Assembly: GCA_964457245.1 (NCBI GenBank)
Contig: CAYWET010000008.1
Location: forward strand, 30,270 to 94,269
Direction of reading: 5' to 3'
Length of the DNA stretch: 64,000 nt
DNA from: an uncultured Chryseobacterium sp.
Lineage (GTDB): Bacteria > Bacteroidota > Bacteroidia > UBA10329
The notes under the pieces are model-generated. The model saw only the letters and a list, made by a program, of their open reading frames with translations. It was not told the DNA's origin and ran no database searches. Of the stretch, positions 4,332-51,643 are shown piece after piece. Within the stretch, counting starts at the first letter, position 1, and every line of letters starts with the position of its first letter. Made by a program: the position numbers and the translations under genes.

Positions 4332-4340
4332 TTTCAAGTC

Positions 4341-4407
4341 GTCATTACGAGGAAAGAATGACCGAAGTAATCTCTTCGAGGAGATTGCCGCTCTTCATTC
4401 GTAATGA
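4341..4407. repeat. Second, diverged copy of the palindromic element
   Basis: TCATTACGA...TCGTAATGA arms and an inner GTAATCTC/GAGATTGC stem, in the trkA-trkH spacer. Confidence 0.7.
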
Positions 4408-4425
4408 GGTGAATATTCGAACCAA

Positions 4426-24557: not shown

Positions 24558-24567
24558 TCGCTTCGTT

Positions 24568-27678: not shown

Positions 27679-27679
27679 T

Positions 27680-34882: not shown

Positions 34883-35655
34883 TGAGATACCGTATTTCAA
34901 ATATGATATTACTTGTTCTGTTGTCTGTTTTGAACTGCAGTTTCGCCTCATTTGATGAGGTAGATACTGGTCGTTTGAATATTCTGGATGAGCAAGATTG
35001 TGAAGCGCTGATTCGAGAGGCTTGGCAGACCACGTATCATCACCAGCCTGTTGACGGAAAGGGTCTTAGGCTGGTAATGAACACAAAGGTTCAAGCATCA
35101 ATGAGTGGTGTTGAACCAATCGATGTTACACAGGAGTTGGTCACGGATGGTTCCAGAAAGTACCTGTTCAATCAGCATTTCGATGTTTTGGAAGATCCGG
35201 AGGTTACGGTTCAAATTACCAAGCCGGCCAAAGAGATTCTGATCAGACCTACAAAATCGCGAGATAGGGCATTACAGAGCTACCGTTCCAATATGTTGAC
35301 GGTGTTAGATACAATGCTGACCCTCTCATCAATTGGAAAATGCGAAAAACTCAAATCTGGAACTTATGTAAGCCTTCAGTTGACAGATGAGGGAAAACAA
35401 TTGTTTCGGGTAGATGAAGTGCTTATTGTAGTGAAGAAACTTCATGGCCTTACGCTGGCATCTAAGATGGAGGTCATTTACTCTAAAGATCACCCTAGGT
35501 TGGAGAGAAGCGTTATGGAGTTGGTGTCGTTTACGCCACATCAGCAACTCGATTTCAGGTTAAAAAAGGCGCCATTGGGTCATTTGTATGATAAGGATGG
35601 AAAACTGAACAATAAATATCAAGGGTGGGAGATCATTGATCAACGACCAGAGTAA
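34879..35655 (+). CDS. Exported hypothetical protein (possibly LolA-like fold)
   Basis: Signal peptide; beta-rich pattern; ends KYQGWEIIDQR; lies between the two giant genes. Confidence 0.6.
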   Translation: MMRYRISNMILLVLLSVLNCSFASFDEVDTGRLNILDEQDCEALIREAWQTTYHHQPVDGKGLRLVMNTKVQASMSGVEPIDVTQELVTDGSRKYLFNQHFDVLEDPEVTVQITKPAKEILIRPTKSRDRALQSYRSNMLTVLDTMLTLSSIGKCEKLKSGTYVSLQLTDEGKQLFRVDEVLIVVKKLHGLTLASKMEVIYSKDHPRLERSVMELVSFTPHQQLDFRLKKAPLGHLYDKDGKLNNKYQGWEIIDQRPE

Positions 35656-35680
35656 AGTTGAACGAACAAAAGCATTTTGT

Positions 35681-38600
35681 ATGATTCTAGAGAAAGGACA
35701 TAAAGGTCGTAGTTATCTGTTCGTTTTAAGTTTCTTAGGGCTTGCGGTTATTTGGTTATCGGTGTTTTCGACTGAGGCCCTCGCTCAGTCATTTGTTGAT
35801 CCTCAAAGCCCGCAGGTTTTCGTTTACGATAACGATGCTTTACTGGATGTTAACAATTCGACCGATTTCTGTCCTGCTATTAATCATGTAATTGGAAATC
35901 CAAGTTTTAGCCCATGTCTTGACTTTAGCTATCCTCAGGATTATGGACGATTTGAGCTGATACTGAGTTTAGACTTTGGCGAAGACTATGATCTTGGCAA
36001 TGAGCCTGTATCTGCATCATTGGAAGTGAATGTGATATTCTCAGATGGATCACCTTGCTTACAGATTCCTGAAACCTACTATCCATTCGATAATCCAGGT
36101 CAAGAAACGATGGTTTCGGCCACCTTGGAGATTGATCAGAATCAACCTGAACAATACTTTCCGATCGGTAATCGGGTATTGACAAGTGATATTCGAAACA
36201 TCGGTATTGAAGTCGTTTCTTACAACGTTAGCGGTGGTCAGCCGGCTACCAATGCGGTTCGATTTAAACTGGAATACCGTCCAAAGATTCTGATCAAACC
36301 TTTGGTTTATCCAACAAACCTTTCCGCCACTCATCAGGGCGGGGATGTATATGAGTTTTCATGGACCAATAGCTGTAATGTGGGAATGCCAGGTCATGAG
36401 TTGCAATTGCTTCATCTAGTAAATCGAACCAATATGCCCGGAAATAATTACGGCAGCGGAGACCCTATTAGCGCACCCGTTGATTGGTCTAAGTCGTTGA
36501 CCATACCAATGGACGGATCGCAGAGCAATATTAAGCTTAGCGTTGCTGAGGGGCCGGGTTACTATGCGTGGAGGGTAAGACCAATAGGGAATGTTTCCGG
36601 AGGTCATGCAAGTGCATCAGATTGGGGAACTTGGTCGGATCACTCAGGAGTGGTGGATGGAAGTACGGTTAACCCAAGCCAATTATCCGTGCCATATGTT
36701 TTTGAATTCGATCCAATTGATGCGGATAAAAATTTCATCTATAGCAGAGCTTTTGTTGAAGGAGATGGCGTTAATACGCCTATTCGGATTGGTGAGAACA
36801 TGACGTATGCAAATGGTTTGAACCAGGTTCAGCAGCAGCAAAGCCATTTAAATGGACAGGATCAGATAATAACTACCCAAACCTTAACGGATTTGGCAGG
36901 AAGACCTTCACTGACTACACTTCCCGTCCCGCTGAGTGGTCAGTCATTCTTAGCTTATAAGGATGGATTTTTACAGAAAGATAACGGTGGAACACTGCGT
37001 GCGGAAGATTATGACCTAGGTTCAAATGTTGGCAACCCACCACATGTGGAGTTAGATGATGATACCTATTACGAAAGTAATTCGGATGCTACCATTCCGT
37101 ACGCCCAAGGTTATCCTTTTAGTAGAACCATTCATTATCCGGATGGAGGCGATCGCCCAATGCGTCAGTCCGGACCAGGTGATGTGCATCGTTTAAGGAG
37201 TTCAGAGGACAGAACAGTTAGGATCAACTATGCCAATGTTACAGAAAATGAATTGATACGGGTTTTTGGAGATGAGGCTCCAGATGCCGCAACCGTTTAC
37301 AAGGTGATAACCACCGACCCCAACGCCAGCGCCAGCGTCCAGTATGTGGAAATGACCGGCAAGACGATCGCAACCTGCTTATCCTCATCAGGTGGAAATC
37401 CTCGTTTAATTTCTCTTGATAGCGAACCAGAGGTTCCGGACTTTGATGTTACTGGGATAATTGAGGAACTAGGATATCAGGGTAGTTATGCGCGTATGGG
37501 CAGCCAGACTCTGGTGCTCACGCAAGAAACAACCGTAACCTTTAACTTTTCTCTAACGCCCAAGACGGTCGAAAGCGCCTGTACGGAACTGGGTATATGC
37601 AAGACCTGCGATTATGAAGTAGAAATTTTGTTGGTCAGTGTAGATGACCCGAGTGATATTGTAGTTGTACCAAGCGATCCACCAAACAATCCCAGCGATC
37701 CGATGATTGAAACGCTCGGCTCTTACAACCCAACTAATATAGAACCTCTTCCAGAGTTAACAGACCCAGAGGGTCCGATGGATTGTCCTACTGGTATGGG
37801 TACATTCGGTGTTTCGGGTCAATCTGTTTTGGTAGAGCCAGGTGGATATAATGTCGTCCTCGTTATTCATTCAGCTAACGAAGGCTCACCGCTCGAAATG
37901 GCGAATATTCTTGAAGAGCACTTGTCGGACTTAAGAAGTGTTTATGACGAAACGTTTAGCGACTATTTAGAGAACAGCCCAGTGGTCAATGGAACGCCAT
38001 TGTTCGACTACTTGTTTCACCCTAATGACCCTGAGGCTCTTCCAGATATCGATGGCTTTTACACAGCGCTTGAGGATTACAGTTTAAGTAGTGCCAATCT
38101 GAATGCTCAAGGAGAGCTCATATCATACACCCTAGAAATTGAAGAGCTTTGTCTGGAGATTGAAATTCCTTACTTGGCCTGTGAATCGGTTCTAAATACC
38201 CCAGATGGTACGCGAACCTGCGATCCGCAATCTGCGCCCCCCGGGCTTGGGTTCATCGATTACTTTATTGATTACTGGACTAATCAAACTGGAGATATGG
38301 AGGATTTGGTTCCCGCTGCTATGTTGGATGAAGATGGAAATGCGTTAGGACATTACCCATTCCTTTATTCCCAATACTTGAACATGGCCTTCGTGGTTCC
38401 TGGCACAACGGCTTCGTCCGGGTTACCCCCAGGAACGGAAGGAGATTTTGAAGAAGTACTTGCAAATTTAGCTGCAGACATGCAACAGAATCAAGTGGAC
38501 TGTCCCAATGGAGATTGTTGTGAATATATCTGGGAATGCTGGATGTCAGTTACCGCAGCCTATGGTGGCATGCTTCAAATAGGAGGCGGGGACGGACAAA

Positions 38601-41600
38601 CAGGCGAAGTTGACCTAGAGGAGGAAGCCTCTGACATTGAGATGCCGGATGGTGTGGACAACCCAATGAGTAATGATATGGGCTACCCTGATCTACCAAG
38701 AATGTTGTTTGAATGCATTGGATGGCAATATTCAAATGATCCAGCTGGTCAGGTGGTAACAGACGACCCCGATCTGTACACTGAACATCCGTACAAATAC
38801 ATCTATTATCCATTCACCGATGATACTTATACGTATAATCCTTGTGTTGACCAATACATAGCTAGAGACCCATATCACATACTATACAATAGTACCTATG
38901 GTATATGTGCTTCAGATAATGATGTTGCAACAGCTCCATTACTGGTGGTTCCTGAAGACGAGAACACTTGGCAGATTTGTTTGGATGACCCTTACGACCT
39001 GGCCAATTATGCCGACCTTGAAGGTTTTGAAGAACCAATTGGTACCACATTGCAAGGAGAAAGCTACACAATAAGCAATGCTTGGGAGGCCTTTAAGAGT
39101 TGCTTGGAGAGTGAGCCAGATGAAGGGTTTTCTGTATATGTGAACGGCCAAGCTACCGAAGAAGGAGCGGTAGAGGCTACGGCTGAAAATCTGAACATCA
39201 ATTGCGAGGAAGTATGTGAGAGTAGAAGAGAGTCTTTCAGATTAGCGCTTATTGATGCTTATCACCAAGAAGGTATTTATGTTCAAGGAGATCAATATGA
39301 GTTGATTCCAACCAGTTACCCTGATCCAGAGGCCAGCCCGGCTCAGGTTTGGGGCGCAGCAGAGTTAACTTCTGAGGAATTGCAGCAAATTGAAGAGGGT
39401 TACTCTCAGGGCTACGAAGTAAATACGAATCTATTACTCGATCCAGATTGGATGGAAACATATGATTACATACCGAATTCTCAACTTGAGTGTATGGTTC
39501 AATCGCTGGTTGAGCATTGTATGGAAGGGTGTACTTTCGAATACGATGAGAACTCGCCTGATAGTTTTAAGGATCAGTTTCTAGCTCAACTACCTGAATT
39601 ACAGCAAGGGGCATTACATGCTTTTACGTCTCCGTTTGAAGTAGCGTTTACGGATAACGGTTCTTGCCCGGCAATCTTGGCGGAGGATCCAGTACAAAGA
39701 GATTTTAGTACCATCTCAGCCATGACCTCAACTACCACTGAAATGAGTTTTACTGGAGATGACCGAGCGTACCGAAGTCAGAGTTTTGAATTGGGAACAG
39801 ATGGAGTTTTGTTGAATGGATTCTTGTATCTACTCGGAACCGTAGATGAACTGGCTTCGAGCGGTTTAGAATTTGCCGCCCCAAATTGGGCTGGTACTAA
39901 CGCTGAGGCTAATATTTGGTTGGTAAAGGCGGATCCGAACACTATGGATGTGGTAGACAAATGGGTTTATGGAGGAAATGGCACTGTCGCAAACAAAGGC
40001 GATTGGGGCTCAAAACTACTCACTGATGGTACCAACCTTTACATAGTTGGAGGAACTGGTTCGTCAAACTTGGACAGATACAACGTTGGAGCTAGTGAAA
40101 TATGCGATTGTCCTATATACGGCCCAGACGCTGCTGGGAACTATAGTTCTGACATATGGATTTTGAAGGTGAATCAAAATGGAACGTTGTTGAAAGCAAA
40201 AACCTTCGGTGGGAATCGTTTGGAATGGCCAACGGATGCCATGATATCTGAAAATGGTCAATTGGTTGTGTTTGCTTATTCACAATCATCAGCAAATGGT
40301 CTTGTAAAGTTTTCGGATGCTGGTCTTAATGGTTCAACTCCGGTTGTTCATTCCTGGGTCTTTGGTATTGATATTAATGATGGTTCGGATTGGGATGTTT
40401 TATGGGATCAGGCTATTGGAGCATACTCGGAAGGAGAGGTATATAATTCCAATGAAGCTTTGATAATGCCAACTGCATTACATGTTGAATCGCAAGGAAC
40501 TGATAACGATGTTTATGTATCCGCATGGACAGCTGGTCAGGACGTAAATGCAAATAATTTTGATTATTCAGTTCTGTATAAATTTAGTACCAGTACGGTT
40601 ACTCTCCCTTCACCCCCAACAAATAATTTCAATGTTTTTACTCAAACACAGAAGTTAGGAGGCAATGAAAGCGTAATTAGTGATATCAACGCTCATTCGG
40701 ATGGTGGGTTGATATTGGCTGGCAGCACAATGGCGCCAGCGGACTTTAGGTTGGACGATTATCGGATTGAGGGTGTGTTAAGTGGCACAACCGATCCATT
40801 CGATTTAAATTCTGACCTGTGGCTTTTAAAGCTTAACGCGGACTTATCTTATTCTTGGGATCGCTGTTACGGGTCTGTGGTTGGTGAGGGGAGTTGTTTT
40901 TACCCTGGTCATCAATCTGGGGATCTAGCGGTACTGAATTATTTTGTGAATCAAAGCTCGAATGCGAGAATATTTAATAGCCAATACGGGGAATATGTGT
41001 TGGTTACAACAGCAGAGAACACGGATGAGGTTACCTTATCCCAAGGGGGTGTTAGGACGCATCCTGGCGCAGGAAACGCAACGCCTGAATCTCTTGATTA
41101 TTGGGTGGTTTTAGTTGATGACGAAGGTGGTTTTATCAGCGATATTGCCATTGGTGGAGATGTGCCTTCGGCTCAGGCTCAAAGTTCTTATGAGTTTTCT
41201 TCTGCCGTCATCGGCCTGAATGATGAAACCATAGCCGTCTTTGGAACATCAACCTCCGACATTGGTGCAGACAGAACATGGTCGGCAGGTGGCGAATACG
41301 ATATGTGGCTAGTGACAGTTGACCTAGGGCGATGCACCCACCCAGATTTCTGCTTCCGATGGTTGGACTTCCCGATAATTGAAGGGGAAGACGTGGAGCC
41401 GGAAGAGTGCGAGGACATCTCCGCTCAATCCATATTGAATAGCGTCTATTCGCAGGTTCAAATTCATAAAGAGGAGGCAGTAGAGGAGTTTGAAGAAGAA
41501 TATATGGTACAATGTGTGGATGATATTGAATTCACCTTCGATTACAACTACAAGGTCGGATACCACCATTACACGCTTTACTATCACGATAGGGCAGGAA

Positions 41601-44600
41601 ACCTCATTAAAACAGTACCACCAGAAGGTGTCGACAGATTGGATGAAGACGATTTGGACATCCCCGATGATGAGACCACAATGAACCGCCAAACCCATCC
41701 TAAACATAGAATGGTAACTGACTATCAGGCCAATAGTTTAGGACAACCGGTACGCCAGAATACACCTGATGGCGGTAACACGCAGTTCTGGCATAATGCG
41801 TTGGGGCAGCTACGCTTTTCTCAGAATGCCCAACAGGCCATCGATAACGAAGCCGCATATACTAAATATGACAATTTGGGTCGTGTGGTAGAAGTGGGTA
41901 AAGTGGGAACAACCGGGCCAAATGCGGATTTCACTGATTCAGATAACCTCAATGACCCCAACTTCCCATTTGTCAATACATCCGAACGCACGTTCACCTA
42001 TTATACAACACCTGCTAGTAGTTTACCTGCGCCATATGGTAGCCTTCAATTAGAGCAGCGCTACACGCAGAATAGGGTAAGCTATACTCGGACTGAACAT
42101 TTTGCTGGCCCTCAATACCCTGAAAAGTTCACGTACTACTCCTACGATCCACATGGAAATGTAGAATGGCTTATTCAGGAGATTCCCGGTTTGGATGGAG
42201 CCAAACTTATAAAGTATCGGTACGATTTGTTCAGTGGAAATGTACTTCAGGTGTCTTACCAACCTGATGAAGCAGACGCTTTTTATCATCGATATACGTA
42301 TGATGCGGATGGTAGGATAGAACAGGTGGAAACCAGTAGAGATAGCTTGATATGGGAGCGGGATGCTCGGTACGAATACTATGCGCATGGACCGTTGAAG
42401 AGAACGGTTTTGGGTGAGGATAAAGTGCAAGGTCTTGATAATGTTTACACCCTACAGGGATGGCTCAAATCCTTGAATCACCCTTCTCTTGATGATGCCA
42501 GCGACCCTGGTCAAGACGGTAACCACGCGATAAATAATGTGGGTCGAGATGCCTTTGGTATGAGTCTGTATTACCACGAAGGCGATTTTCATCACACAGG
42601 GTCTCCGTTTGATAACCCAGTAAATGGACCAAGTAATCCAGACCCATATTTATTGACCTTGGATAACGAAGGTTTATACAACGGTAACATTGCCGGGTGG
42701 GTGTCCAATATGGATGTGCCAAGCGTTGCACAATGGGATGGATTACAGGCGTGGCAGTACGAGTATGACGTGCTGAATCGAATCAGAACAGCCGACCATT
42801 ATACGCATGATGGAAGCCAATGGTCTTCAACGGTAGATTATGGCACGCAATACACTTATGATGCCAATGGAAACATCAAAACCCTACACCGAATGGGAAG
42901 TGCTGGGCTGGCTATGGACGATCTGGCCTATACATATCAAACCTCTCCCATTGTAAACAACCGCTTGACTATGGTGGTTGATTCAGAACAGGACCCTACT
43001 GCATTCAACACAGATATTGATGGTACACGATATTTCGGTTATGACGATAATGGAAACCTGACTTCCGATTTAGATGGTCAAGGAAATGGCATTGAAACCA
43101 TTGAATGGAATCTACAAGGAAAAATTCAGTCCATAGAGAGAACATCCGGCTCTGATGATGACGACCTGAATTTTGAGTATGATGCAATGGGTAATAGGGT
43201 CATTAAAAGGGTCATTGATCCTAACGACCCCACAATTAAGGAAACCTATTATGTGCGTGATGCTCAGGGAAACATCATGGCCACCTATCAAAGAGAATAC
43301 ACCGTCTGTGGTGGAGGTACAGAAGAGACTATCAAACTTACCGAACGTCCAATTTATGGAAGTTCAAGAATTGGACAGGATGTAAACGAAGTGGTACTTC
43401 GACAAACGGTTTGTAATGGCAACACGCCTCAGTTGCTTCCAAGTAATTCTCCTCGAATTCCAGACCAGCACATCATGTCCATTGTGGGAGATGTCGAGTA
43501 CCGTCAAATCAGTTTCGTATCACCTTGGGGAGGGCTGTTTCAATTTAATATTCCATATCATACAATTCAACGCTATGATGTAACTGGACCTACGCCACAG
43601 TTGACCCAAAGCAGGACCGCTTGGCTGTCCGGTAATATTACCAGCGTTACAGCTGAAGACCATAACGAAAGCTTGGTTTTCACTGGCCTCATTAGTTCCA
43701 ATTTGTTTGGGGTTCGTTTGTATCTATTCGACAATGCAAACATGCCAATTCTAGGAATGCATCACATTACAAAAGTAGCGTCAGGAACCCAGATGCTGGC
43801 CTTGCAATGGGACGATAGCCGTTGGTTGTTATTCACTATGGATCAGACAGGGCAAGTGTTTTATCATGTTATCCAGGTCGCTCCCACCATTCAGGTGATA
43901 TCTTGGGATAACCCGTTGACCGAAACAGGCGGATATGCTAATTGCATGGCATTGATAGCGGATCATTCGGAGACACACCCGTCAAGATTGTACCTCAAAA
44001 GAAGGCAGACCCGAAACACACCTTCAATGTTTTCAAGTATTGGTTTGAGCTTAGGCGGTGCGCTCCCAGCAACAGAGCAGGTTCCCGATCAAGAGGTTAC
44101 CTTCTCAAGCAACATCTTCGGGTTTAGCGGTAGTGGTAGTAGTGAGATTCAGATATCCCCAGATGGTACCAAGCTTGCCGTGGTGGGGCAAACCTCCCAG
44201 CAGGGGTCACTCCCAATTTACCACCCCATTTTCGGACCAATATTTACAAGTGTTTACGTTTCTGCGCTTTATGTGTTCGAGTTGGGAGCTGACCACAGAA
44301 TAGTTAACGCAAATCCAGACCCTTGGATACAGATGTTAGAACTCCAAGGAAACAGAAGGAAAATAAGAAGCTTTGATTTCTCACCTTCAGGAGAAAGCAT
44401 ATACTTTTCGCAAACATCCCTTTCTCAATCGGTACCTCCCGTTCTTAGAAGATGGAACCTCAGCACCAATAATGTAACCGATGTTTTTGCGGAGTACACC
44501 AGTTGTGTACGAAGAGCCGACAATGGAGATATGCATGCCTTGGCACACCCCGATTTTGTGATCATTGATGACCCAGATGGTACACCGCTGGCCTCTACTA

Positions 44601-45679
44601 TTTCTATCGGTACAAACGGTGTTGGAGGCCATATACGCCTGCAGCCGCATAGAATTTATAATAGCGAGATTCCACCGCTTACCAGAATACTAGGTAAAAA
44701 ACGTTATGAACTGAATGACCACTTAGGCAATGTGCGTGCTGTTGTTACCGACCGTAAACTGTCTACCCTGGTAGCAGGGCAACCGCAGAGTTTCAGGGCA
44801 GAAATTGCCGGGTTGAACAACTATTACCCATTTGGTATGCAAATGGAAGGCCGCGAATACTTCGATTCGCAGGGCTACAGATTCGGCTTCAACGGCATGG
44901 AGAAGGATGATGAGGTCAAGGGGAGCGGCAACAGCCTCGACTTCGGGGCCAGGATATATGATCCGAGACTTGGTCGATTCCTATCTACCGATCCTCAGTG
45001 GGTAAACTTCCCAGGGTCTGGACCATATAATTATGCGGCGAACAGTCCAATTGCATTTATCGATAAGGAAGGAGAAAATCCTTTACCAGCTTGGGTAATT
45101 AAAGCTTTGGTTAGAGCTGCGATTCAGGTGGCGGCTAATGTTACTGTAGCGAGAAAAATCGGTAAGAATTACGACAATTTGCAGGGATTAAATAAACGGT
45201 TGGACGAAATAGGCAAAGAGTTACAATACCTAGAAAATGGAGAAGTGCCTCCTTCTGGAGAGGGACCGGAATTGTTTGGGGGTGGGTCTCATGGTGGTGC
45301 TGGTGCTGGTGGTTCGTGGGTTCCGAACGATGATCCAATGATTTTAAAACGTGAAAAAGAAAGACAGCTTGCTGAAAAGGAAAGAAAGGCTGAATTTTTT
45401 CGAGAAAACCCTGATTTAAAGGAGCGCATGGAGCAACTGCAAGAGGAAAAGGCGAATTTAGAAAAACAAAAACCAGGATTAGAAAAGAAGCAAGAACGTT
45501 TGGAAAAAACTCAGGACGCCCTAAAGCAATTGAATCCAGCACAAATAATCGATAATGTCATAAACATTATTGACGCTCAGACTAAAGATGAAGAAAACTC
45601 TGATGATAGAAGTACCACGGAGATTATTGATGATGAAATAAACAAGGCGGTTGAAGCTGAGCTTGAAAAAGGCGATTAA
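35681..45679 (+). CDS. RHS-repeat-associated core protein (polymorphic toxin-like), ~3330 aa
   Basis: Signal peptide (EALA|Q) from ATG 35681. DUF6443-like TYANGLNQV..DLAGRP; YD repeats; YELNDHLGNV, YYPFGM, YRFGFNGMEKD, ARIYDPRLGRFLSTDP and autoprotease motif PIAFIDKEG, followed by a ~200-aa tip. Confidence 0.92.
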   Translation: MILEKGHKGRSYLFVLSFLGLAVIWLSVFSTEALAQSFVDPQSPQVFVYDNDALLDVNNSTDFCPAINHVIGNPSFSPCLDFSYPQDYGRFELILSLDFGEDYDLGNEPVSASLEVNVIFSDGSPCLQIPETYYPFDNPGQETMVSATLEIDQNQPEQYFPIGNRVLTSDIRNIGIEVVSYNVSGGQPATNAVRFKLEYRPKILIKPLVYPTNLSATHQGGDVYEFSWTNSCNVGMPGHELQLLHLVNRTNMPGNNYGSGDPISAPVDWSKSLTIPMDGSQSNIKLSVAEGPGYYAWRVRPIGNVSGGHASASDWGTWSDHSGVVDGSTVNPSQLSVPYVFEFDPIDADKNFIYSRAFVEGDGVNTPIRIGENMTYANGLNQVQQQQSHLNGQDQIITTQTLTDLAGRPSLTTLPVPLSGQSFLAYKDGFLQKDNGGTLRAEDYDLGSNVGNPPHVELDDDTYYESNSDATIPYAQGYPFSRTIHYPDGGDRPMRQSGPGDVHRLRSSEDRTVRINYANVTENELIRVFGDEAPDAATVYKVITTDPNASASVQYVEMTGKTIATCLSSSGGNPRLISLDSEPEVPDFDVTGIIEELGYQGSYARMGSQTLVLTQETTVTFNFSLTPKTVESACTELGICKTCDYEVEILLVSVDDPSDIVVVPSDPPNNPSDPMIETLGSYNPTNIEPLPELTDPEGPMDCPTGMGTFGVSGQSVLVEPGGYNVVLVIHSANEGSPLEMANILEEHLSDLRSVYDETFSDYLENSPVVNGTPLFDYLFHPNDPEALPDIDGFYTALEDYSLSSANLNAQGELISYTLEIEELCLEIEIPYLACESVLNTPDGTRTCDPQSAPPGLGFIDYFIDYWTNQTGDMEDLVPAAMLDEDGNALGHYPFLYSQYLNMAFVVPGTTASSGLPPGTEGDFEEVLANLAADMQQNQVDCPNGDCCEYIWECWMSVTAAYGGMLQIGGGDGQTGEVDLEEEASDIEMPDGVDNPMSNDMGYPDLPRMLFECIGWQYSNDPAGQVVTDDPDLYTEHPYKYIYYPFTDDTYTYNPCVDQYIARDPYHILYNSTYGICASDNDVATAPLLVVPEDENTWQICLDDPYDLANYADLEGFEEPIGTTLQGESYTISNAWEAFKSCLESEPDEGFSVYVNGQATEEGAVEATAENLNINCEEVCESRRESFRLALIDAYHQEGIYVQGDQYELIPTSYPDPEASPAQVWGAAELTSEELQQIEEGYSQGYEVNTNLLLDPDWMETYDYIPNSQLECMVQSLVEHCMEGCTFEYDENSPDSFKDQFLAQLPELQQGALHAFTSPFEVAFTDNGSCPAILAEDPVQRDFSTISAMTSTTTEMSFTGDDRAYRSQSFELGTDGVLLNGFLYLLGTVDELASSGLEFAAPNWAGTNAEANIWLVKADPNTMDVVDKWVYGGNGTVANKGDWGSKLLTDGTNLYIVGGTGSSNLDRYNVGASEICDCPIYGPDAAGNYSSDIWILKVNQNGTLLKAKTFGGNRLEWPTDAMISENGQLVVFAYSQSSANGLVKFSDAGLNGSTPVVHSWVFGIDINDGSDWDVLWDQAIGAYSEGEVYNSNEALIMPTALHVESQGTDNDVYVSAWTAGQDVNANNFDYSVLYKFSTSTVTLPSPPTNNFNVFTQTQKLGGNESVISDINAHSDGGLILAGSTMAPADFRLDDYRIEGVLSGTTDPFDLNSDLWLLKLNADLSYSWDRCYGSVVGEGSCFYPGHQSGDLAVLNYFVNQSSNARIFNSQYGEYVLVTTAENTDEVTLSQGGVRTHPGAGNATPESLDYWVVLVDDEGGFISDIAIGGDVPSAQAQSSYEFSSAVIGLNDETIAVFGTSTSDIGADRTWSAGGEYDMWLVTVDLGRCTHPDFCFRWLDFPIIEGEDVEPEECEDISAQSILNSVYSQVQIHKEEAVEEFEEEYMVQCVDDIEFTFDYNYKVGYHHYTLYYHDRAGNLIKTVPPEGVDRLDEDDLDIPDDETTMNRQTHPKHRMVTDYQANSLGQPVRQNTPDGGNTQFWHNALGQLRFSQNAQQAIDNEAAYTKYDNLGRVVEVGKVGTTGPNADFTDSDNLNDPNFPFVNTSERTFTYYTTPASSLPAPYGSLQLEQRYTQNRVSYTRTEHFAGPQYPEKFTYYSYDPHGNVEWLIQEIPGLDGAKLIKYRYDLFSGNVLQVSYQPDEADAFYHRYTYDADGRIEQVETSRDSLIWERDARYEYYAHGPLKRTVLGEDKVQGLDNVYTLQGWLKSLNHPSLDDASDPGQDGNHAINNVGRDAFGMSLYYHEGDFHHTGSPFDNPVNGPSNPDPYLLTLDNEGLYNGNIAGWVSNMDVPSVAQWDGLQAWQYEYDVLNRIRTADHYTHDGSQWSSTVDYGTQYTYDANGNIKTLHRMGSAGLAMDDLAYTYQTSPIVNNRLTMVVDSEQDPTAFNTDIDGTRYFGYDDNGNLTSDLDGQGNGIETIEWNLQGKIQSIERTSGSDDDDLNFEYDAMGNRVIKRVIDPNDPTIKETYYVRDAQGNIMATYQREYTVCGGGTEETIKLTERPIYGSSRIGQDVNEVVLRQTVCNGNTPQLLPSNSPRIPDQHIMSIVGDVEYRQISFVSPWGGLFQFNIPYHTIQRYDVTGPTPQLTQSRTAWLSGNITSVTAEDHNESLVFTGLISSNLFGVRLYLFDNANMPILGMHHITKVASGTQMLALQWDDSRWLLFTMDQTGQVFYHVIQVAPTIQVISWDNPLTETGGYANCMALIADHSETHPSRLYLKRRQTRNTPSMFSSIGLSLGGALPATEQVPDQEVTFSSNIFGFSGSGSSEIQISPDGTKLAVVGQTSQQGSLPIYHPIFGPIFTSVYVSALYVFELGADHRIVNANPDPWIQMLELQGNRRKIRSFDFSPSGESIYFSQTSLSQSVPPVLRRWNLSTNNVTDVFAEYTSCVRRADNGDMHALAHPDFVIIDDPDGTPLASTISIGTNGVGGHIRLQPHRIYNSEIPPLTRILGKKRYELNDHLGNVRAVVTDRKLSTLVAGQPQSFRAEIAGLNNYYPFGMQMEGREYFDSQGYRFGFNGMEKDDEVKGSGNSLDFGARIYDPRLGRFLSTDPQWVNFPGSGPYNYAANSPIAFIDKEGENPLPAWVIKALVRAAIQVAANVTVARKIGKNYDNLQGLNKRLDEIGKELQYLENGEVPPSGEGPELFGGGSHGGAGAGGSWVPNDDPMILKREKERQLAEKERKAEFFRENPDLKERMEQLQEEKANLEKQKPGLEKKQERLEKTQDALKQLNPAQIIDNVINIIDAQTKDEENSDDRSTTEIIDDEINKAVEAELEKGD

Positions 45680-45695
45680 ATCTAATTTGACTACT

Positions 45696-46208
45696 ATGTT
45701 AAGTGAAACAAGGTTTAGTAGGTTGAATCTTTTATTGGTCGTGTTCATCCTGATAGGGTGCGATACCAATACTGGGAATGACTCAACGAAAGATAAAGAA
45801 GTGCCAAGAAAGGCGGTAATTGACATTGAGGAATTGTTCACTTTGGAAGAAGAAAAACGGATAGAATCTCAGATTTCGGATGCCCTGACTAATTCTCGGA
45901 TTGCGGTTGTGGTTATTACAACGTCAAGTTATAAGCCTTTTGACAACATACAGGATTATGCCGTAGGAAAGTCGAATGAATTGGGTGTCGGGGATGCTAC
46001 AAATAATGGCGCCTTGATCGTGGTCAGCAAATCCAACGGTGCCATATGGATTTCGTTAGGGAAAGGACTGGAAAACCAAATAACGAATAATGAATGCCAA
46101 ATTATCATCAACGAGAGTATAATTCCTGAGTTTAGAAATTCCAGCTATGTGTCTGGGGTTATCTCTGGAATTCAAGAACTTGAAAACCACATGAAGGCGA
46201 CTAGTTAA
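45696..46208 (+). CDS. TPM-domain (YgcG/Psb32/MOLO-1) lipoprotein, candidate immunity protein
   Basis: Lipobox LIGC; VIDIEELFT.EE, IAVVVIT, GVGD..NNGALIVVS, ISLGKGLE, IIPEFRN..Y..GV..GI. Lacks TM helices and the Gly-rich tail. ATG 45696 preferred. Confidence 0.85.
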   Translation: MLSETRFSRLNLLLVVFILIGCDTNTGNDSTKDKEVPRKAVIDIEELFTLEEEKRIESQISDALTNSRIAVVVITTSSYKPFDNIQDYAVGKSNELGVGDATNNGALIVVSKSNGAIWISLGKGLENQITNNECQIIINESIIPEFRNSSYVSGVISGIQELENHMKATS

Positions 46209-46659
46209 CCTTTATTGTTAACGCTATGTCATCCTCAGTAGAAAAGACGAGATCGCTGCCTGACGATTTTATCTCGATTAGACTAAGCGTATCTGCATTT
46301 ATGCGAGTATAGGAATAAGGTTGTTCCCAAGGATCCAACTTCCATCCCTTTTTTAATGGATTTGTGCCAACTAGTTCCTTCATTGATATTGGGGGATGCC
46401 CTGTTTCTTGGATTATATTAGAAACTGCAGTTGCAATTTGCTCCATTTCAAGGTTGGCTTTTCTTTCCTTGATTCTATCTTGGTTTAGGGCTTTGTAAAG
46501 AATTATGCCCGTTGATCCAAGCACTATGATTAAAACTGAAAGTTTTACCGAAAGTGGAAATATTAATTCCCACAAAGACATTGACTTGTTTTTTCGATCT
46601 GAGTATTTGTAGCCTACCGCATCGAGAACAGAGGATATAATAATTTCTAATACAGTCAA
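46201..46659 (-). CDS. Orphan GspG-C-terminal-domain protein
   Basis: TM helix followed by DPWEQPYSY...IKSSGSD.VFSTEDDI, matching the T2SS GspG DPWG.PY...S.G.D...T.DDI pattern. No clear prepilin cleavage site. Confidence 0.7.
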   Translation of the reverse strand: MTVLEIIISSVLDAVGYKYSDRKNKSMSLWELIFPLSVKLSVLIIVLGSTGIILYKALNQDRIKERKANLEMEQIATAVSNIIQETGHPPISMKELVGTNPLKKGWKLDPWEQPYSYTRINADTLSLIEIKSSGSDLVFSTEDDIALTIKVN

Positions 46660-47325
46660 CGTTTCTAAGTATAGCTGCTTTGTGTAAAACCTTGGTGTGT
46701 TCCCAAGTTACAAACATCAAACGTGTAAAGAAGTACTTACAAATGAAATAATCTGTTTATAATTGAGAGTTTTGACTGGCACAACCAGAAAGCTGTTTGG
46801 AATAGGCGTCCTAAGTTAAAAGGAACATTGAACTCAAACGGGCAAAAGAGACCACGGACCACCTAGAAGGCTTCCAAGGCAAAGAATAAATTTCCCCGCC
46901 CCGCTCGCGCAAGTCTTCCGCAGGACGACTTGAGTGGAACATAACACGATCAGTTTCCGAACTGATTTAACTTGAAGCATGCTAGAATAAGACTGTCTGT
47001 TATTCTAGGTAGAGAAAACCTCATGGGTCGTAACTCATTGATACAGAGCTCTCAAAACTCCAATAATTTATCTCAAAAGGCCATTAATTCATCTCAAAGA
47101 TCCCCTAAACAATTACCAAAAGAGCTAAATCCATCTGCAAACTGATGTAAAGCAGATTTAAAGAACCATGACCCATATCAAAGGCACCCGAAACAAGTCC
47201 AAAGAAGCCGATGCTAAGGTTCAAAATAGTCTAACCCATAGCCAAAGCAGAGTAAGGCTTGTAGAAACAGCATTACATCACCCTAAGTAATCAACAATTG
47301 CCCCTAAATTGTTGATAACTACACA

Positions 47326-47356
47326 TTGCTCAAGGAACACCGATCCCATACTTTAG
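47326..47356 (+). promoter_or_regulatory. Putative promoter of the T2SS operon
   Basis: TTG-N20-TACTTTAG, preceded by a 14-bp imperfect inverted repeat at 47286-47320. Confidence 0.5.
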
Positions 47357-47378
47357 ACAGTCCTAATTTGTTCAGGAC

Positions 47379-47780
47379 ATGTATTCAAAAAAGCTAAAAG
47401 CGTTTACGCTAACAGAGCTGCTAATTGTATTGGCTATTGTGGGTATTCTGGTATTGCTGGCGCTGCCCAAACTGATGCCGCTTATATCACGTGCCAAGAG
47501 TACTGAGGCGCAACTGCAGCTCAGTCACCTACACATGCTGCAGAAAACGTATTTCTACACGCATTCAGAGTACAGCACAAGTTTTGATGACCTTGGCTTT
47601 GAGCAAGAAACCTTGGTTGATGAGGGTGGTTCAGCACAATACCTCATTGAAATAACCGAAGCAGGGCCTTCTGGTTTTTTGGCCACGGCTACTGCGGTTA
47701 AAGACTTCGATGGTGATGGCACCTTCAATGTTTGGGAGGTTGATCAGGATAAGAAACTCAAAGAAGTGGTCAAAGACTGA
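47379..47780 (+). CDS. gspG: Major (pseudo)pilin, GspG/PilE-like
   Basis: KA|FTLTELLIVLAIVGIL prepilin motif with E5; DFDGDG putative Ca-binding loop. Confidence 0.88.
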   Translation: MYSKKLKAFTLTELLIVLAIVGILVLLALPKLMPLISRAKSTEAQLQLSHLHMLQKTYFYTHSEYSTSFDDLGFEQETLVDEGGSAQYLIEITEAGPSGFLATATAVKDFDGDGTFNVWEVDQDKKLKEVVKD

Positions 47781-47785
47781 CGCAA

Positions 47786-48307
47786 GTGTCGGTTCTTCAG
47801 ACCATAGCATGGCTACTCATGGCAGCAGCATCCATTACCATAACCTACCAAGATTTCAAAGCAAGAAGCATTAGCCTTTGGACTGTGGTATTGGTTTTGG
47901 CTACTTCACTTTCATTGAGTGCTTCCAACATTGGTTTTGTTGCCACGTTGCAAAATTGGGGTCTGAATGCGGCATTTCTGGTTTTCCAGTTGTTGTTGGT
48001 CATGTTGATTTTCGGTTTGGCAAGAAAACAATGGAACTTCTTTGATACCCTAATGGGTTGGGGAGATGTCCTTTACCTGTTGTCAATCGCAGCCCTTTTT
48101 TCTACGGTTAACTTTCTGCTTTTCTATGTTTCAGCGCTATTGGTTTCACTGGTCGGGTTTCTCATTTATCGAGAGGTGTCAAAAAATAAGGACACCAATG
48201 TTCCGCTTGCTGGACTATTGGCTCTTTGCTCATTGGTTTTCGTTGCTGTTTCAGCATGCTTTGGTTATCAACCTTGGGATGAGATTCCCATTTACCTTTT
48301 GTTTTGA
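47786..48307 (+). CDS. Prepilin peptidase (A24), short form
   Basis: YQDFK and MGWGD aspartate motifs; multi-TM; no N-terminal Cys-rich methyltransferase domain. Confidence 0.8.
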   Translation: MSVLQTIAWLLMAAASITITYQDFKARSISLWTVVLVLATSLSLSASNIGFVATLQNWGLNAAFLVFQLLLVMLIFGLARKQWNFFDTLMGWGDVLYLLSIAALFSTVNFLLFYVSALLVSLVGFLIYREVSKNKDTNVPLAGLLALCSLVFVAVSACFGYQPWDEIPIYLLF

Positions 48308-49734
48308 TGAGCGTTGAGGCGAAAGAAATAACAGTTGATGCAAGTTTGCAGCAGTGCCTCACTGCCGACCAGTCGTTGAAATTCCGAGTGGTTTGTTTCA
48401 GAACCAAAAACGGTCAGTTGGATTTCTATGTGGCACAGAGCGGTCAGGAACCTTCTCTGGCAGATGAGCTCGAGCTCATTACGGGTAAGAAGGTGAACCT
48501 GACACCCGTTGAGGATGAGTTGGTGGAACGGGCGTTGAAACGATTCTTCCGACAAAGTGAGAAGAAGGAAACGACCTATCATTTCTCTGCTAACCGGGAT
48601 GTTTTGCAGGATATGCTCAAGGAAGCCAAGGACATGAATGCTTCTGACATTCACTTTGAGGTCTATGAGGACAGGGCGCGGATCCGTTTTAGAATTGATG
48701 GACATCTTATGGAGCGATATTCTGTGCCTATCGCGGAATATCCTGCGTTGGTCAACCGAATCAAGGTTACATCCAAACTGGACATTGCAGAAAGAAGACT
48801 TCCGCAGGATGGCCGCATCATGGTCAATACGGATGAGTACGCTTTCGATATCCGCGTTTCGATTGTTCCAACGTTGCATGGTGAGAAAGCCGTTTTACGG
48901 CTGCTAAGTCGTGATGCAACCGACATCCAAATTGAAAAGTTAGGGTTTGACAACTCGCAGCTGAACACGTATCTCGAAAGTGCGAGAAAACCGCAGGGCA
49001 TTATTCTTATCAGCGGTCCAACGGGCTCCGGAAAAACCACCACACTTTACGCTACTCTAAAGGTTCTGAATGAGGAAAGTCGGAACATCCTCACCATTGA
49101 AGACCCGATTGAGTACACACTGGAAGGCATCAATCAGGTACAGCTTAATGAGCGCATCGGCTTGGACTTCGGGAAAGCGCTGCGGACGTTCCTTCGTCAA
49201 GACCCGGATGTCATCATGCTCGGTGAGATTCGTGATTCGGAAACCGCGGCTATGGCAGTTCGGGCGGCACTTACAGGCCACTTGGTGCTTTCTACGGTAC
49301 ACACCAACTCTGCTTGGGGAACGATCAGCCGTTTGACTGATATGGGCGTTCCAGCTTATCTGATTGCTGAAACTCTCAACCTCTCAGTGGCCCAACGGTT
49401 GGTAAGAAAACTCTGTCCAGAATGTAAAGAGCAAGGGATGCTGGAAGAAGGACAGCTGCCCAAATCCCTGGGTAATGAGTATGTGGGAATTGACTACTTC
49501 AAACCCGTTGGTTGCGAAAGTTGCTATTACACTGGCTACAGCGGAAGAAAGGCTCTCTACGAAGTGATTCCAATAGACCACAATCTTGCGACTGAAATTA
49601 GAAAGGAACATGCTGATGTTAGGGCTGAATTGAAGAAAAGAAAGGTGCTTTCTATTCCTGATCAAGCACTGAACCTTTTGAAGAATGGAGAGACCTCGGT
49701 GGAGGAGGTTTACTCACTATTGTTAAATGCATAA
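48307..49734 (+). CDS. gspE: T2SS/T4P assembly ATPase GspE/PilB
   Basis: ASDIHFE, ERRLPQDG, Walker A GPTGSGKTT, TIEDPIE, LRQDPD, AALTGHLVLSTVH and tetracysteine CPEC/CESC. Confidence 0.95.
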   Translation: MSVEAKEITVDASLQQCLTADQSLKFRVVCFRTKNGQLDFYVAQSGQEPSLADELELITGKKVNLTPVEDELVERALKRFFRQSEKKETTYHFSANRDVLQDMLKEAKDMNASDIHFEVYEDRARIRFRIDGHLMERYSVPIAEYPALVNRIKVTSKLDIAERRLPQDGRIMVNTDEYAFDIRVSIVPTLHGEKAVLRLLSRDATDIQIEKLGFDNSQLNTYLESARKPQGIILISGPTGSGKTTTLYATLKVLNEESRNILTIEDPIEYTLEGINQVQLNERIGLDFGKALRTFLRQDPDVIMLGEIRDSETAAMAVRAALTGHLVLSTVHTNSAWGTISRLTDMGVPAYLIAETLNLSVAQRLVRKLCPECKEQGMLEEGQLPKSLGNEYVGIDYFKPVGCESCYYTGYSGRKALYEVIPIDHNLATEIRKEHADVRAELKKRKVLSIPDQALNLLKNGETSVEEVYSLLLNA

Positions 49735-51643
49735 CCAGAAACCTGTGAGAATTACTGTTTTGTCAATCCTGTTTGTTTTAGGCCTGTTGTTTCAGGTGAA
49801 TGCGCAGGACAGATTCCGTTCGCTGGAAAATCAGCTTAAGAGTTTGGTTGCAGACAACCCAGGACTGGAGTCTACGGTTGATCTTTCGGTTAGTGAAGTT
49901 CCTGTACAGGAATTCCTCAGAGCGGTAGCCATGACCAATGCATTGAACATTAGTGTTGCGCCAGAACTGAAGATTCAAGTGGTGAATACGTTTACCAATG
50001 TCACGGTCATAGATGTGCTTGTTTTCCTGTGTAAGGAGTATAACCTGAAAATAGACTTCGTTGGAAACATCATGTCGGTTACCAAATTTGAGCGACCACC
50101 TGAGGCGCCCAAAAAGTACGTGCCCAAAAAGCTTGACATAACCTACGATGGGCGGAATGAGTTGCTGAGTTTCAATCTCAAGACCGATAGTCTTTTTCTT
50201 GTTGCCAAGGAGATAACAAAGGTCTCGGATAAGAATGTTGTGCTTGCGCCTGGGTTAATCGGTAAGATGGTGTCCGGATTTGTTCAGAAGCTCGGGTTTG
50301 CAGATGCAATGGACAAGCTTGCTTTTTCCAACGGGTTGTTGATTGAGACTGGGAATGATGGTTCATATCTACTCACTGAAGCTAATCAGGAGGAGCCAGC
50401 CGTAGCAAGTTCAAGAAGGAACGGTAAGCGAGGAAACAACAAGACTGATGTTCCATCTGGACTGTTTTTAGAAGTGACCAAAGATTCGTTGCTAACCGTT
50501 GATGGTGTTGGTGTAAAGGGAAGCGAGATCATTAAGGCCATTTCATCTGAATTGGGCAAGAACTATTATCTCTTTTCAGAAATGCAGGAAGCCACCACGG
50601 TACAGGTCGAAGGTGTGAGTTACGAGGAGTTTCTGGGTTATCTGTTGAACGGAACTGATATGACCTTCAATAAGGAAGGCTCAATCTATCTTATCGGCAA
50701 GCGAAACTTAGAAGGTCTGAGAGAAACTCGCATCGTCAGATTCCAAAATAGGACCATCAAGGAAATGGAAGAATTTATCCCAGCAGAGATGAAGGAAGGG
50801 GTGAAGATCAAGGTGGTTGAGGAAATGAATGCCATGGTACTAAGTGGTTCGGAGCCACAGATCAATGAGATATCTGCTTTTCTGAAGGATATGGATCAAG
50901 TTGTTCCAGTAGTGATGATCGAGGTGATTATTGTAGATGTCAATCGGTCAAGGACGGACGAGGCAGGTTTGGATATGGGCTTGGGTGATGCTCCTGTTAA
51001 AACAGGTGGCTCTATTCTTTCAGGATTGGATTTCACCATCAATTCGAGTTCCTTCAATAGCATACTCGCAGCTCTTAGTGGGCTGGGAAGTTTCAATTTT
51101 GGTCAGGTTACTCCGAACTTCTATGTCAGTCTAAAAGCGCTGGAAAGTCAGGGGTTCCTCCGCTCTCGTTCAACACCACTTCTTTCAACGTTGAACGGGC
51201 ATAAAGCCACAATGACGATTGGAAATCAGGAGTACTATCTGGAGACGACCAATAATGTAATCGGTTCTCAGAATCCTCAGAATCAGATCACGCAGCAATA
51301 CAAGTCAGTAAATGCTGCATTGACGTTGGATATTGTTCCAGTTGTCTCTGCTGATGGTCAAGTTACCATGGACATTTCTGTGACACAGTCAGACTTTACT
51401 TCGCGGATTTCACCACAAGCACCTCCGGGACAGGTAACGCGGGATTTCCGTTCGTTGATAAGGGTTAAAGATCAGGAGATGATCATGTTGGGAGGGTTGG
51501 AAGAAAAGAGCATTTCAGAGTCTGGCAGAGGATGGCCGATTCTTTCTCGAATTCCGATTTTAAAATGGTTATTCAGTTCCCGTTCGCGGAAAAAGGATAA
51601 GACGCAGTTGAACATCTTCATCAAGCCAACCATCATCTACTAA
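49727..51643 (+). CDS. gspD: Secretin GspD/PilQ
   Basis: Signal peptide, STN-like N domains, DQVVPVVMIEVIIV, TPLLSTLNG, LGGL, P.LSRIPILKWLF and NIFIKPTII. Confidence 0.93.
   Translation: MHNQKPVRITVLSILFVLGLLFQVNAQDRFRSLENQLKSLVADNPGLESTVDLSVSEVPVQEFLRAVAMTNALNISVAPELKIQVVNTFTNVTVIDVLVFLCKEYNLKIDFVGNIMSVTKFERPPEAPKKYVPKKLDITYDGRNELLSFNLKTDSLFLVAKEITKVSDKNVVLAPGLIGKMVSGFVQKLGFADAMDKLAFSNGLLIETGNDGSYLLTEANQEEPAVASSRRNGKRGNNKTDVPSGLFLEVTKDSLLTVDGVGVKGSEIIKAISSELGKNYYLFSEMQEATTVQVEGVSYEEFLGYLLNGTDMTFNKEGSIYLIGKRNLEGLRETRIVRFQNRTIKEMEEFIPAEMKEGVKIKVVEEMNAMVLSGSEPQINEISAFLKDMDQVVPVVMIEVIIVDVNRSRTDEAGLDMGLGDAPVKTGGSILSGLDFTINSSSFNSILAALSGLGSFNFGQVTPNFYVSLKALESQGFLRSRSTPLLSTLNGHKATMTIGNQEYYLETTNNVIGSQNPQNQITQQYKSVNAALTLDIVPVVSADGQVTMDISVTQSDFTSRISPQAPPGQVTRDFRSLIRVKDQEMIMLGGLEEKSISESGRGWPILSRIPILKWLFSSRSRKKDKTQLNIFIKPTIIY

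Follow-up and report, generated by a model that had tools for sequence, protein, structure and literature searches.

An RHS C-terminal tip with a glycine-rich motif resembling the tail of TPM proteins, adjacent to a bare TPM-domain lipoprotein: a candidate toxin/immunity cassette

The DNA considered here is a 64,000-nucleotide stretch from an uncultured Chryseobacterium sp. (GenBank assembly GCA_964457245.1, contig CAYWET010000008.1, positions 30,270 to 94,269 of the forward strand), referred to below as the window. It contains a long gene for an RHS protein that ends in a C-terminal tip of a rare family and, directly after it, a gene for a bare TPM-domain lipoprotein in the position of an immunity gene (Table 1). 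The N terminus of the RHS protein is a hydrophobic, signal-like stretch. RHS repeats (PF05593) are matched by a 667-residue piece encoded by 41000–43000 (30.5 bits, cut-off 22) and by the adjoining piece at 20 bits, and DUF6443 matches the shell at 18.2 bits, under its cut-off; the full-length protein gave no Pfam match at E ≤ 0.01. The RHS repeat-associated core is matched by Rhs_assc_core (TIGR03696) with E = 2e-12 (47.4 bits, cut-off 32.5) over model positions 1–75 of 76, and its end reads ...NSPIAFIDKEG, followed by ENPLPAW. Because the core ends at DKEG, the tip is the product of 45074–45676 plus the stop codon. The boundary between RHS core and tip likewise reads D.[DNE]G followed by [EM].P.PAW in homologs P0007, P0009, and P0010 of the tip. 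RHS tips are released by autoproteolysis at the core boundary, at a DPxGL-type motif, and from its sequence the PIAFIDKEG-E boundary is presumed to be the autoproteolytic site here.

Table 1. Features of the RHS gene, the adjacent TPM gene, and the genes beyond them (window coordinates; aa, amino acids; ORF, open reading frame)
Feature	Position	Strand	Remarks
Whole RHS ORF	35636-45679	+	3347 aa
RHS shell of the 3347-aa protein	35636..45073	+	signal-like N-terminal stretch, weak DUF6443, RHS/YD repeats, core
RHS repeat-associated core (aa 3063-3146)	44822..45073	+	TIGR03696; presumed autoproteolytic boundary
C-terminal tip	45074..45679	+	201 aa plus stop; prototype of a rare RHS tip family that has no name yet
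Long N-terminal helix of tip (tip aa 6-54)	45089..45235	+	AlphaFold2 helix, pLDDT 72-86
Glycine-rich motif FGGGSHGGAGAGGSW (tip aa 68-82)	45275..45319	+	loop between two long helices
Highly charged C-terminal helices of tip (tip aa 88-200)	45335..45673	+	AlphaFold2 helices
Bare TPM-domain lipoprotein	45696..46208	+	170 aa, probable ATG at 45696; presumed cognate immunity protein
TPM domain proper	45816..46184	+	Pfam match, residues 56-178 of the 185-aa reading
152-aa ORF, weak T2SSG match	within 46201-51643	-	
Pilin with N-methylation motif and ComP_DUS-like domain	47379-47780		
Weak prepilin-peptidase match	47786-48307		
T2SSE ATPase	48304-49734		

No family in Pfam or NCBIfam accounts for the tip. 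Pfam returned only two sub-threshold matches at E ≤ 0.01, NCBIfam returned none, and a scan at E ≤ 10, in which HMMER filters remove most matches above E of about 0.1, gave coiled-coil families only, all under their cut-offs. A single 17-bit match in PHROGs leads to an entry of unknown function, and a look-up in the ESM Atlas gave no usable match. Searched against 1,835,955,588 representative proteins with phmmer, the tip found eight matches at E ≤ 1e-3: itself (P0004), six true homologs (P0005–P0010) that are 34–50% identical to it, and one spurious match to a repetitive coiled coil (P0011). The RHS core end immediately precedes the tip in three of the six homologs (P0007, P0009, and P0010). 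A word-based protein search with the tip alignment found P0010 and a 101-residue fragment, P0013. The family is thinly spread: a tip profile run over 401 genomes of the class placed a tip only in the window's own genome, the other seven genomes matched giving short glycine-tail or coiled-coil matches (L008, L009, L011, L012, and L013 were inspected), and among 301 genomes of the family to which the Chitinophagaceae locus described below belongs, only that locus carries one. Two metagenome scans held no true tip relative. One candidate relative, the 754-residue protein of L017, lacks the motif and was matched via its charged region; it was discarded.

The seven tips have in common a first helix of the form PAW[VI][IV][RK]..V...IK, the glycine-rich motif, a PMT.EE stretch, and a charged coiled coil. 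The first ~25 residues of the N-terminal helix (PAWVIKALVRAAIQVAANVTVARKI) are moderately hydrophobic, with a Kyte-Doolittle 19-residue maximum of 1.5 and a hydrophobic moment of 0.38–0.44, and PAW..V...IK of this helix is conserved in the tip alignment. Charge is concentrated farther on, with charged residues making up 53% of tip residues 88–151 and 36% of the whole tip. The glycine-rich motif is kept in 7/7 tips as GG..[GS]G.G[AV].G[SK][WF]G; glycines G71, G75, G77, and G80 are invariant, and 105–119 residues follow the motif.

The second gene of the pair lies in an ORF of 45651–46208, in which the TTG at 45651 is an alternative start that gives a 185-residue reading. Its ATG at 45696 is separated by 16 bp from the stop of the tip at 45679. 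The encoded protein matches the TPM family (PF04536) with E = 7.1e-24 (84.6 bits, cut-off 22.1) over profile positions 1–123 of 125, carries a lipobox (...VFILIGC), and stops seven residues past the domain match, with neither a transmembrane (TM) helix nor a glycine tail. Within the genome, it is closer to the periplasmic domain of the canonical TPM protein (37% identity, 63.5 bits) than to a cytoplasmic 144-residue paralog (23.5 bits). There is no lemA gene near it, the lemA operon of this genome being on contig C5, and a word-based protein search with the lipoprotein found only itself.

The function of the TPM-domain proteins of LemA operons is debated, with phosphatase and assembly chaperone as the two proposals. 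The window's genome (4.03 Mb, 98% complete) has three TPM matches, two of which are encoded in tandem on contig C5, after the gene for LemA (PF04011, 3.4e-64). The first protein of this pair is the 144-residue paralog, which has no signal peptide. The second, of 304 residues, has a signal peptide, a TPM domain, a TM helix, and a glycine-rich tail ending FGGFGGGSFGGGGAGGSW-stop. A search with the TPM lipoprotein gave a TPM match in 277 of the 401 genomes of the class, a count that takes in one genome flagged as unpublished (G180), and returned 29 loci (L019–L047), 20 of which have the order lemA-TPM-TPM with a tail-bearing last protein. The glycine tail closes all 21 canonical TPM proteins aligned, from these 20 loci and the window's genome; L040, with a TPM domain at the end of a 324-residue ORF and no tail, and L041, whose canonical copy is truncated where the contig stops, were left out of the TPM alignments. 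A DNA search for GGGAGG[S/T/R]W plus a stop codon in 151 genomes of the class found a single copy of the tail in each of 44 genomes and 0 copies of the reversed control pattern.

The canonical TPM protein has one strong hydrophobic helix after its signal peptide, followed by a K/R-rich stretch; a second helix is absent from several canonical homologs. In locus L001 (1276–2190), the TM helix and tail of the canonical protein (residues 223–286) weakly match PF25184, a family of putative bacteriocins like YxzE (E = 2.6e-4, 22.4 bits, cut-off 40). A second arrangement was seen in L027, where a canonical tail-bearing TPM gene (663–1466) is followed by a bare TPM lipoprotein gene (1483–1971), both on the plus strand. 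Tails of the form ...FGGGSFGGGGAGG[SG]W-stop were also observed on non-TPM proteins: a 255-residue multi-TM protein from two genomes (L009:1501–2268, minus strand; L012:802–1569, plus strand), for which there is no Pfam or NCBIfam family, and a polytopic protein in a 403-residue frame (L011:376–1584, plus strand). From these sequences the glycine tail looks like a portable C-terminal module.

The motif of the tip and the tail of the canonical protein are closely alike. FGGGSHGGAGAGGSW is identical at 13 of 15 positions to FGGGSFGGGGAGGSW, the end of the genome's own canonical TPM protein, and GAGGSW, at tip residues 77–82, is the same six letters as the canonical tail end. Translated in six frames, the 4.03-Mb genome contains the regular expression GG.{1,3}GG.GA.G.W at exactly two places, the RHS tip and the TPM tail, and relaxing the expression adds two unrelated glycine-rich stretches. 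When the profiles of the tips and of the canonical TPM proteins were compared by hhalign, motif and tail were aligned over 17 columns that are 76% identical (probability 96.3%, E = 1.7e-9), values that carry the caveat of low-complexity sequence, and nothing outside these 17 columns was aligned. BLASTP with composition adjustment reported nothing between the tip and the 304-residue TPM protein, as is expected of low-complexity sequence. The DNA encoding the motif and the DNA encoding the tail are dissimilar, and there has therefore been no recent gene conversion between them.

The order of tip and TPM gene is repeated outside the window. A profile scan of genome contigs yielded one true further tip locus, L016, from a Chitinophagaceae metagenome-assembled genome; a scan with another tip alignment yielded none. 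Here the tip homolog P0008 (187 residues, 37% identical to a sequence of the query alignment) is an orphan module at 3998–4561, and its end is overlapped by a gene (4512–5042) for a 176-residue TPM lipoprotein (PF04536, 2.1e-19). Also at this locus are an RHS C terminus that weakly matches Ntox44 and a module of the Amidase_3 type, with small genes downstream of each, and the genome has a canonical TPM pair at another place. A tip followed by a TPM lipoprotein is thus found at both loci with downstream DNA, the window and L016. The background for this comparison is a set of 70 other RHS-core loci (431 kb) recovered with the core end of P0007, some of which are cut by contig ends, so that not all of their downstream regions are complete; a TPM ORF or the motif was found in 0 of the 70, and a hidden Markov model of the tip found a tip in none. 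A contig scan with P0006 gave no loci.

Much of this bears on an earlier note on the same DNA, written from the sequence alone. The note had placed the start of an RHS tip after DKEG at exactly 45074, had seen in it no nuclease, deaminase, or ADP-ribosyltransferase motif but a glycine-rich motif at 45275–45319, and had called the next gene a bare TPM lipoprotein; each of these descriptions agrees with the searches above, and the YgcG-type tail that it had described is a real feature of the LemA-TPM-TPM operon of this genome and of the canonical proteins at large. It had also set, beforehand, motif conservation among tip homologs and the presence of adjoining TPM genes as tests, and both came out in its favor.

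The AlphaFold2 model of the tip alone (7-row alignment) is all-helical, with a mean predicted local distance difference test score (pLDDT) of 75 and a predicted template modeling score of 0.49. Helices are predicted at residues 6–54, 88–111, 113–151, 155–171, and 181–200, and the C-terminal helices probably fold back against helix 6–54 to give an antiparallel hairpin. The tip is read no further than as a helical hairpin with the glycine loop at or near its apex. Foldseek found no PDB entry at E ≤ 0.001. Its top rows, XaxA, AhlC, YaxA, and the dynein stalk, are not significant, and ClyA-type proteins have E-values of 0.32–1.9 and TM-scores of at most 0.28. VIA-align likewise returned helical hairpins at Z ≤ 8.1, which is within noise, Z-scores below ~13 being common for long helices: IpaB 74–242 scored 8.1, PspA (4whe) 7.4, Vipp1 7.0, and CHMP4B and Snf7 6.8. 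PspA, Vipp1, and the ESCRT-III proteins are tied with unrelated hairpins, and the dynein stalk and prefoldin are also among the best matches.

A model of the canonical 304-residue TPM protein (21-row alignment, mean pLDDT 78) has a confident TPM domain, helices at residues 220–248 and 252–266, and a disordered glycine linker at 267–294. Residues 299–303 (GAGGS) form a β-strand, and the last block of the chain has a pLDDT of 85. Since the only sheet in the model is that of the TPM domain, the tail end would, by this prediction, extend the sheet of a TPM domain by one strand. Can the TPM lipoprotein hold the loop of the tip in a similar way? The earlier note had proposed modeling the tip with the TPM protein. 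With tip residues 51–100 (7-row alignment) and lipoprotein residues 23–170 (31-row alignment) as input, the complex prediction scored 0.51 (runs 0.51, 0.52, and 0.50) compared with 0.00 for the best of three controls; at least 90% of contacts were common to the runs, and the pLDDT of the partner was at least 76. In calibration, 58 of 80 solved complexes passed, as did 2 of 110 mismatched pairs. Scores of 0.60 or below comprise only 7 of the 80 solved complexes together with both of the mismatches that passed, and the score of 0.51 is for this reason graded weak. The genomic and motif evidence is independent of the score, which therefore raises the odds of binding between loop and TPM domain modestly.

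The RHS architecture, a conserved motif that resembles the canonical tail, and a repeated order of tip and TPM gene lead us to propose that the two genes form a toxin/immunity cassette in which the TPM lipoprotein neutralizes the tip by holding its tail-like loop, with the tip acting at the envelope. We give this reading a probability of about one-half. In this proposal, the Sec-exported RHS protein would carry the 201-residue tip, and the bare TPM lipoprotein encoded by the next gene would be its cognate immunity protein. The apical loop of the tip hairpin would be a conserved copy of the GGGSFGGGGAGGSW tail of LemA-operon TPM proteins. If TPM domains hold this tail as an added β-strand, the immunity TPM domain could apply the same grip to the toxin loop and neutralize it outside the cytoplasm. 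In a target lacking the immunity protein, the tip would act at the envelope: the loop may latch onto a resident TPM domain, the hydrophobic N-terminal helix may enter the inner membrane, or both may happen; by either path, the LemA-TPM complex in the membrane or the integrity of the membrane itself would be disturbed. We infer the toxicity of the tip, its compartment of action, and its target, and action outside the cytoplasm fits the arrangement because the immunity protein is a lipoprotein and the N terminus of the RHS protein is signal-like. Two further points are predictions from models: that the tail docks on a TPM domain and that the immunity protein binds the loop segment through its TPM domain.

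Several observations weigh against this reading. The gene context comes from two loci only, the tip family consists of seven sequences, and the predictions are of modest strength. In the model of the tip alone, the motif loop is of low confidence, with residues 63–82 at pLDDT <50, and the pairing of the tail strand in the canonical model is deduced from DSSP and pLDDT only. A pass in the weak class of complex scores is wrong more often than it is right, except where the pairing was already likely, and the alignments used were shallow; because the prediction comes with no contact list, the motif is not pinned as the contact. The motif is internal in the tips, whereas the tryptophan is the last residue of canonical TPM proteins, and the tail is not specific to TPM proteins, as it also closes at least two families of non-TPM polytopic membrane proteins. 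The two immunity TPM proteins share only 23% identity and do not group as sisters in the tree, and the copy of L016 lacks the conserved NNG. Eight bare TPM genes in other genomes (among L019–L047) have no toxin adjoining, so that the presence of a bare TPM lipoprotein does not by itself point to a toxin. Finally, the single strong TM helix of the canonical protein and the K/R-rich stretch after it place the native tail, by the positive-inside rule, probably in the cytoplasm, unlike the lipoprotein immunity protein, which is outside it. The natural partner of a cytoplasmic tail would be the signal-less 144-residue TPM protein, and the toxin loop and the immunity TPM domain could re-use the grip between TPM domain and tail in a different compartment.

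Of the earlier note's proposal, recognition of the motif by the TPM lipoprotein as a cognate immunity protein is reasonable given the linkage and the predictions; that the tip is toxic, that it targets TPM/LemA complexes, and that a decoy gives immunity are the conjectural parts. The tree is compatible with a role in immunity. The canonical TPM clade has a support of 97/100, and both toxin-linked TPM proteins fall outside it on branches of 1.75 and 4.49, compared with a median of 0.4. Such fast divergence fits immunity genes, and the tree shows no single origin for the two.

The cassette can be compared with several known systems. It is like the RHS/YD polymorphic toxins of the WapA and Tse5 types in its repeats, its Rhs_assc_core boundary, its variable tip of ~200 residues, and the small linked gene that comes next, as well as in the occurrence of an orphan tip with its immunity cassette, here in L016. 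It differs from them in that the tip, a charged helical hairpin with a glycine loop, lies outside the described toxin families and that the immunity protein is a TPM domain. WapA has a Sec-type N terminus and no PAAR or type VI secretion domain, and the protein considered here resembles it in this respect. With the LemA-operon TPM proteins (YgcG and Psb32-like), the cassette shares the TPM domain, in the downstream gene, and the tail, in the loop of the tip. Here domain and tail are on two proteins and in reverse order, with the motif internal between long helices, and the downstream TPM protein, unlike the YgcG type, has no TM helix, no tail, and no lemA neighbor and falls outside the canonical clade.

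A different possibility, which we place on the unlikely side, is that the tip is a membrane-active toxin, a pore-forming or depolarizing hairpin like Tse5-CT, with the lipid bilayer as its target and a tail likeness that reflects ancestry. Tse5-CT, the tip of Pseudomonas aeruginosa RhsP1, is described as forming ion-selective pores at the cytoplasmic membrane without a predicted catalytic function (PMC9637101), and both are RHS tips with no predicted enzyme, a likeness drawn by description only. In its ancestry form, this alternative holds that the first helix and loop descend from the TM-plus-tail 3′ end of a canonical TPM gene into which an RHS core recombined and that the adjoining TPM lipoprotein, already interacting with this module, became the immunity protein. 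The native order of a canonical TPM gene and a bare TPM lipoprotein gene in L027 agrees with such a history, and gene orders of this type could be the evolutionary source of the cassette, with the RHS core recombining into the 3′ part of the gene; if so, descent and likeness of function are not separable on present data. The first helix of the tip is borderline TM by its Kyte-Doolittle maximum, the TM-plus-tail segment of canonical TPM proteins has its weak match, under cut-off, to the PF25184 bacteriocin family, and the best fold matches of the tip are helical hairpins and α-pore-forming toxins (XaxA, AhlC, YaxA, and IpaB), none of them significant.

Other features of the tip are harder to reconcile with a pore. 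With more than a third of its residues charged and only one moderately hydrophobic helix, it is far more charged than Tse5-CT. The hhalign match stops at the 17 motif columns, so that the first helix is not recognizable as the TM helix of a TPM protein, and YxzE matches no tip at E ≤ 10. The letters of the motif (GG..GG.GA.GSW) are strictly kept over tips that are 30–50% identical, beyond what a hinge needs. The immunity protein of Tse5 also differs: Tsi5 is described as an integral membrane protein with two TM helices (PMC9637101), and the protein here is a lipoprotein with a soluble domain.

Returning to the cassette in which the lipoprotein holds the loop, we can tentatively extend it by supposing that the GGGSFGGGGAGGSW tail is a portable ligand of TPM domains, copied by the toxin family into an exposed loop to hijack the near-universal LemA-TPM complex in the envelope of competitors, as its receptor or as the target that it poisons, with the immunity protein serving as a decoy TPM domain that takes up the loop. 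This extension is speculative, and we consider it rather improbable. If it is true, the pair would be a nonenzymatic toxin/immunity system based on molecular mimicry, and it would also offer the first direct experimental handle on the action of TPM domains and their glycine-rich tails.

That the pair serves trafficking or anchoring instead is doubtful; on this reading, the TPM lipoprotein would chaperone the RHS C terminus by its loop during export or display, and the coiled coil would be structural. TPM domains are fused to lipocone polymorphic toxins associated with the type IX secretion system (T9SS), and a trafficking or chaperone role has been proposed for them (PMC12419801, Burroughs/Aravind, eLife 2025; PMC11237479); Aravind and co-workers propose that TPM domains help to assemble membrane-linked complexes. 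The present case is like the lipocone toxins in having a TPM domain in a polymorphic-toxin context and in Bacteroidota-type secretion surroundings, the RHS gene lying within a run of T9SS/SprB-type surface-protein genes, and a tip with no enzymatic motif would suit a structural role. In the lipocone toxins, the TPM domain is fused within the toxin (PMC12419801); in the present cassette it forms a lipoprotein of its own, encoded in the immunity position, and what the toxin bears is the tail. Moreover, the tip is placed after the RHS core boundary, the exact site of toxins. The orphan tip and TPM gene of L016 stand without an RHS shell among toxin-like cassettes, an arrangement that is typical of toxin/immunity pairs and pointless for trafficking, and the branches of the immunity-like TPM proteins are very long, as divergence in an arms race would give.

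Slightly less probable again is coincidence, with a low-complexity linker that resembles the tail by composition and a TPM gene that is an ordinary neighbor. The likeness does span only 15–17 low-complexity residues over which composition-adjusted BLASTP is silent, bare TPM lipoproteins are common housekeeping genes, and the linkage rests on two loci. Against this stand a motif kept letter by letter in every tip, the occurrence of its regular expression elsewhere in the 4-Mb genome only at the TPM tail, the return of the tip-TPM pairing in a Chitinophagaceae genome, the lack of a TPM gene at the other 70 RHS loci, and the tight spacing of the two genes, which are nearly contiguous here and overlap in L016. 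Most improbable is a reading of the tip as an F1Fo ATP synthase inhibitor of the IF1 type: the best PDB sequence matches of the tip profile are mitochondrial IF1 chains (9b0x_J at E = 9.1e-5 and 25.5 bits, several orthologs at E = 0.0025–0.12), and the glycine motif and charged helix do resemble IF1 (aGGsfG, an EE-rich helix, a coiled coil), but these scores are marginal and fall in charged coiled-coil sequence, no IF1 family is among the Pfam matches of the tip halves at E ≤ 10, a lipoprotein immunity protein outside the cytoplasm is mismatched to cytoplasmic F1, and the likeness of tip residues 68–140 (45275–45500) is probably compositional.

The RHS gene closes a run of tightly packed plus-strand genes (21000–35655) that encode an SprB-repeat protein (1185 residues), a CHU_C protein with a T9SS signal (641 residues), an OmpH-like protein, and proteins of 214, 2400, and 258 residues, each without a family match, and the RHS protein may be part of a larger surface-protein operon. 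Just downstream of the TPM gene (46201–51643) are genes like those of type IV pili and type II secretion systems. The G+C content falls from 0.45–0.51 at the core end to 0.35–0.43 across the tip, the TPM gene, and the next minus-strand ORF (45300–46800), which fits a swapped-in cassette and also a K/E-rich composition. Elsewhere in the genome, contig C18 encodes two small secreted proteins of 343 residues (L005:859–1890, minus strand) and 359 residues (L006:775–1854, minus strand). Their N-terminal halves are near-identical and their C-terminal parts are different, each has a partial RHS-core end (TIGR03696 positions 42–76, under cut-off), and a small signal-bearing gene follows each; they are probably short polymorphic toxin/immunity modules.

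Overall, the cassette combines a familiar frame with unfamiliar parts. RHS toxin cassettes are well known, and the tip family described here is extremely rare and has no catalytic signature; what is new is this family and the pairing of a tail-bearing toxin with an immunity protein that is the domain of the same family. The earlier note knew of no toxin/immunity pair of this kind, and in the parts of the literature that were searched we likewise found no report of a TPM domain as an immunity protein or of a function for the glycine tail; among the titles listed for YgcG, none dealt with its function. If the TPM domain of the proposed cassette does grip the loop, the toxin, the immunity protein, and a peptide would make a simple assay for TPM domain and tail, and the pair would be an example of immunity by a target-like decoy.

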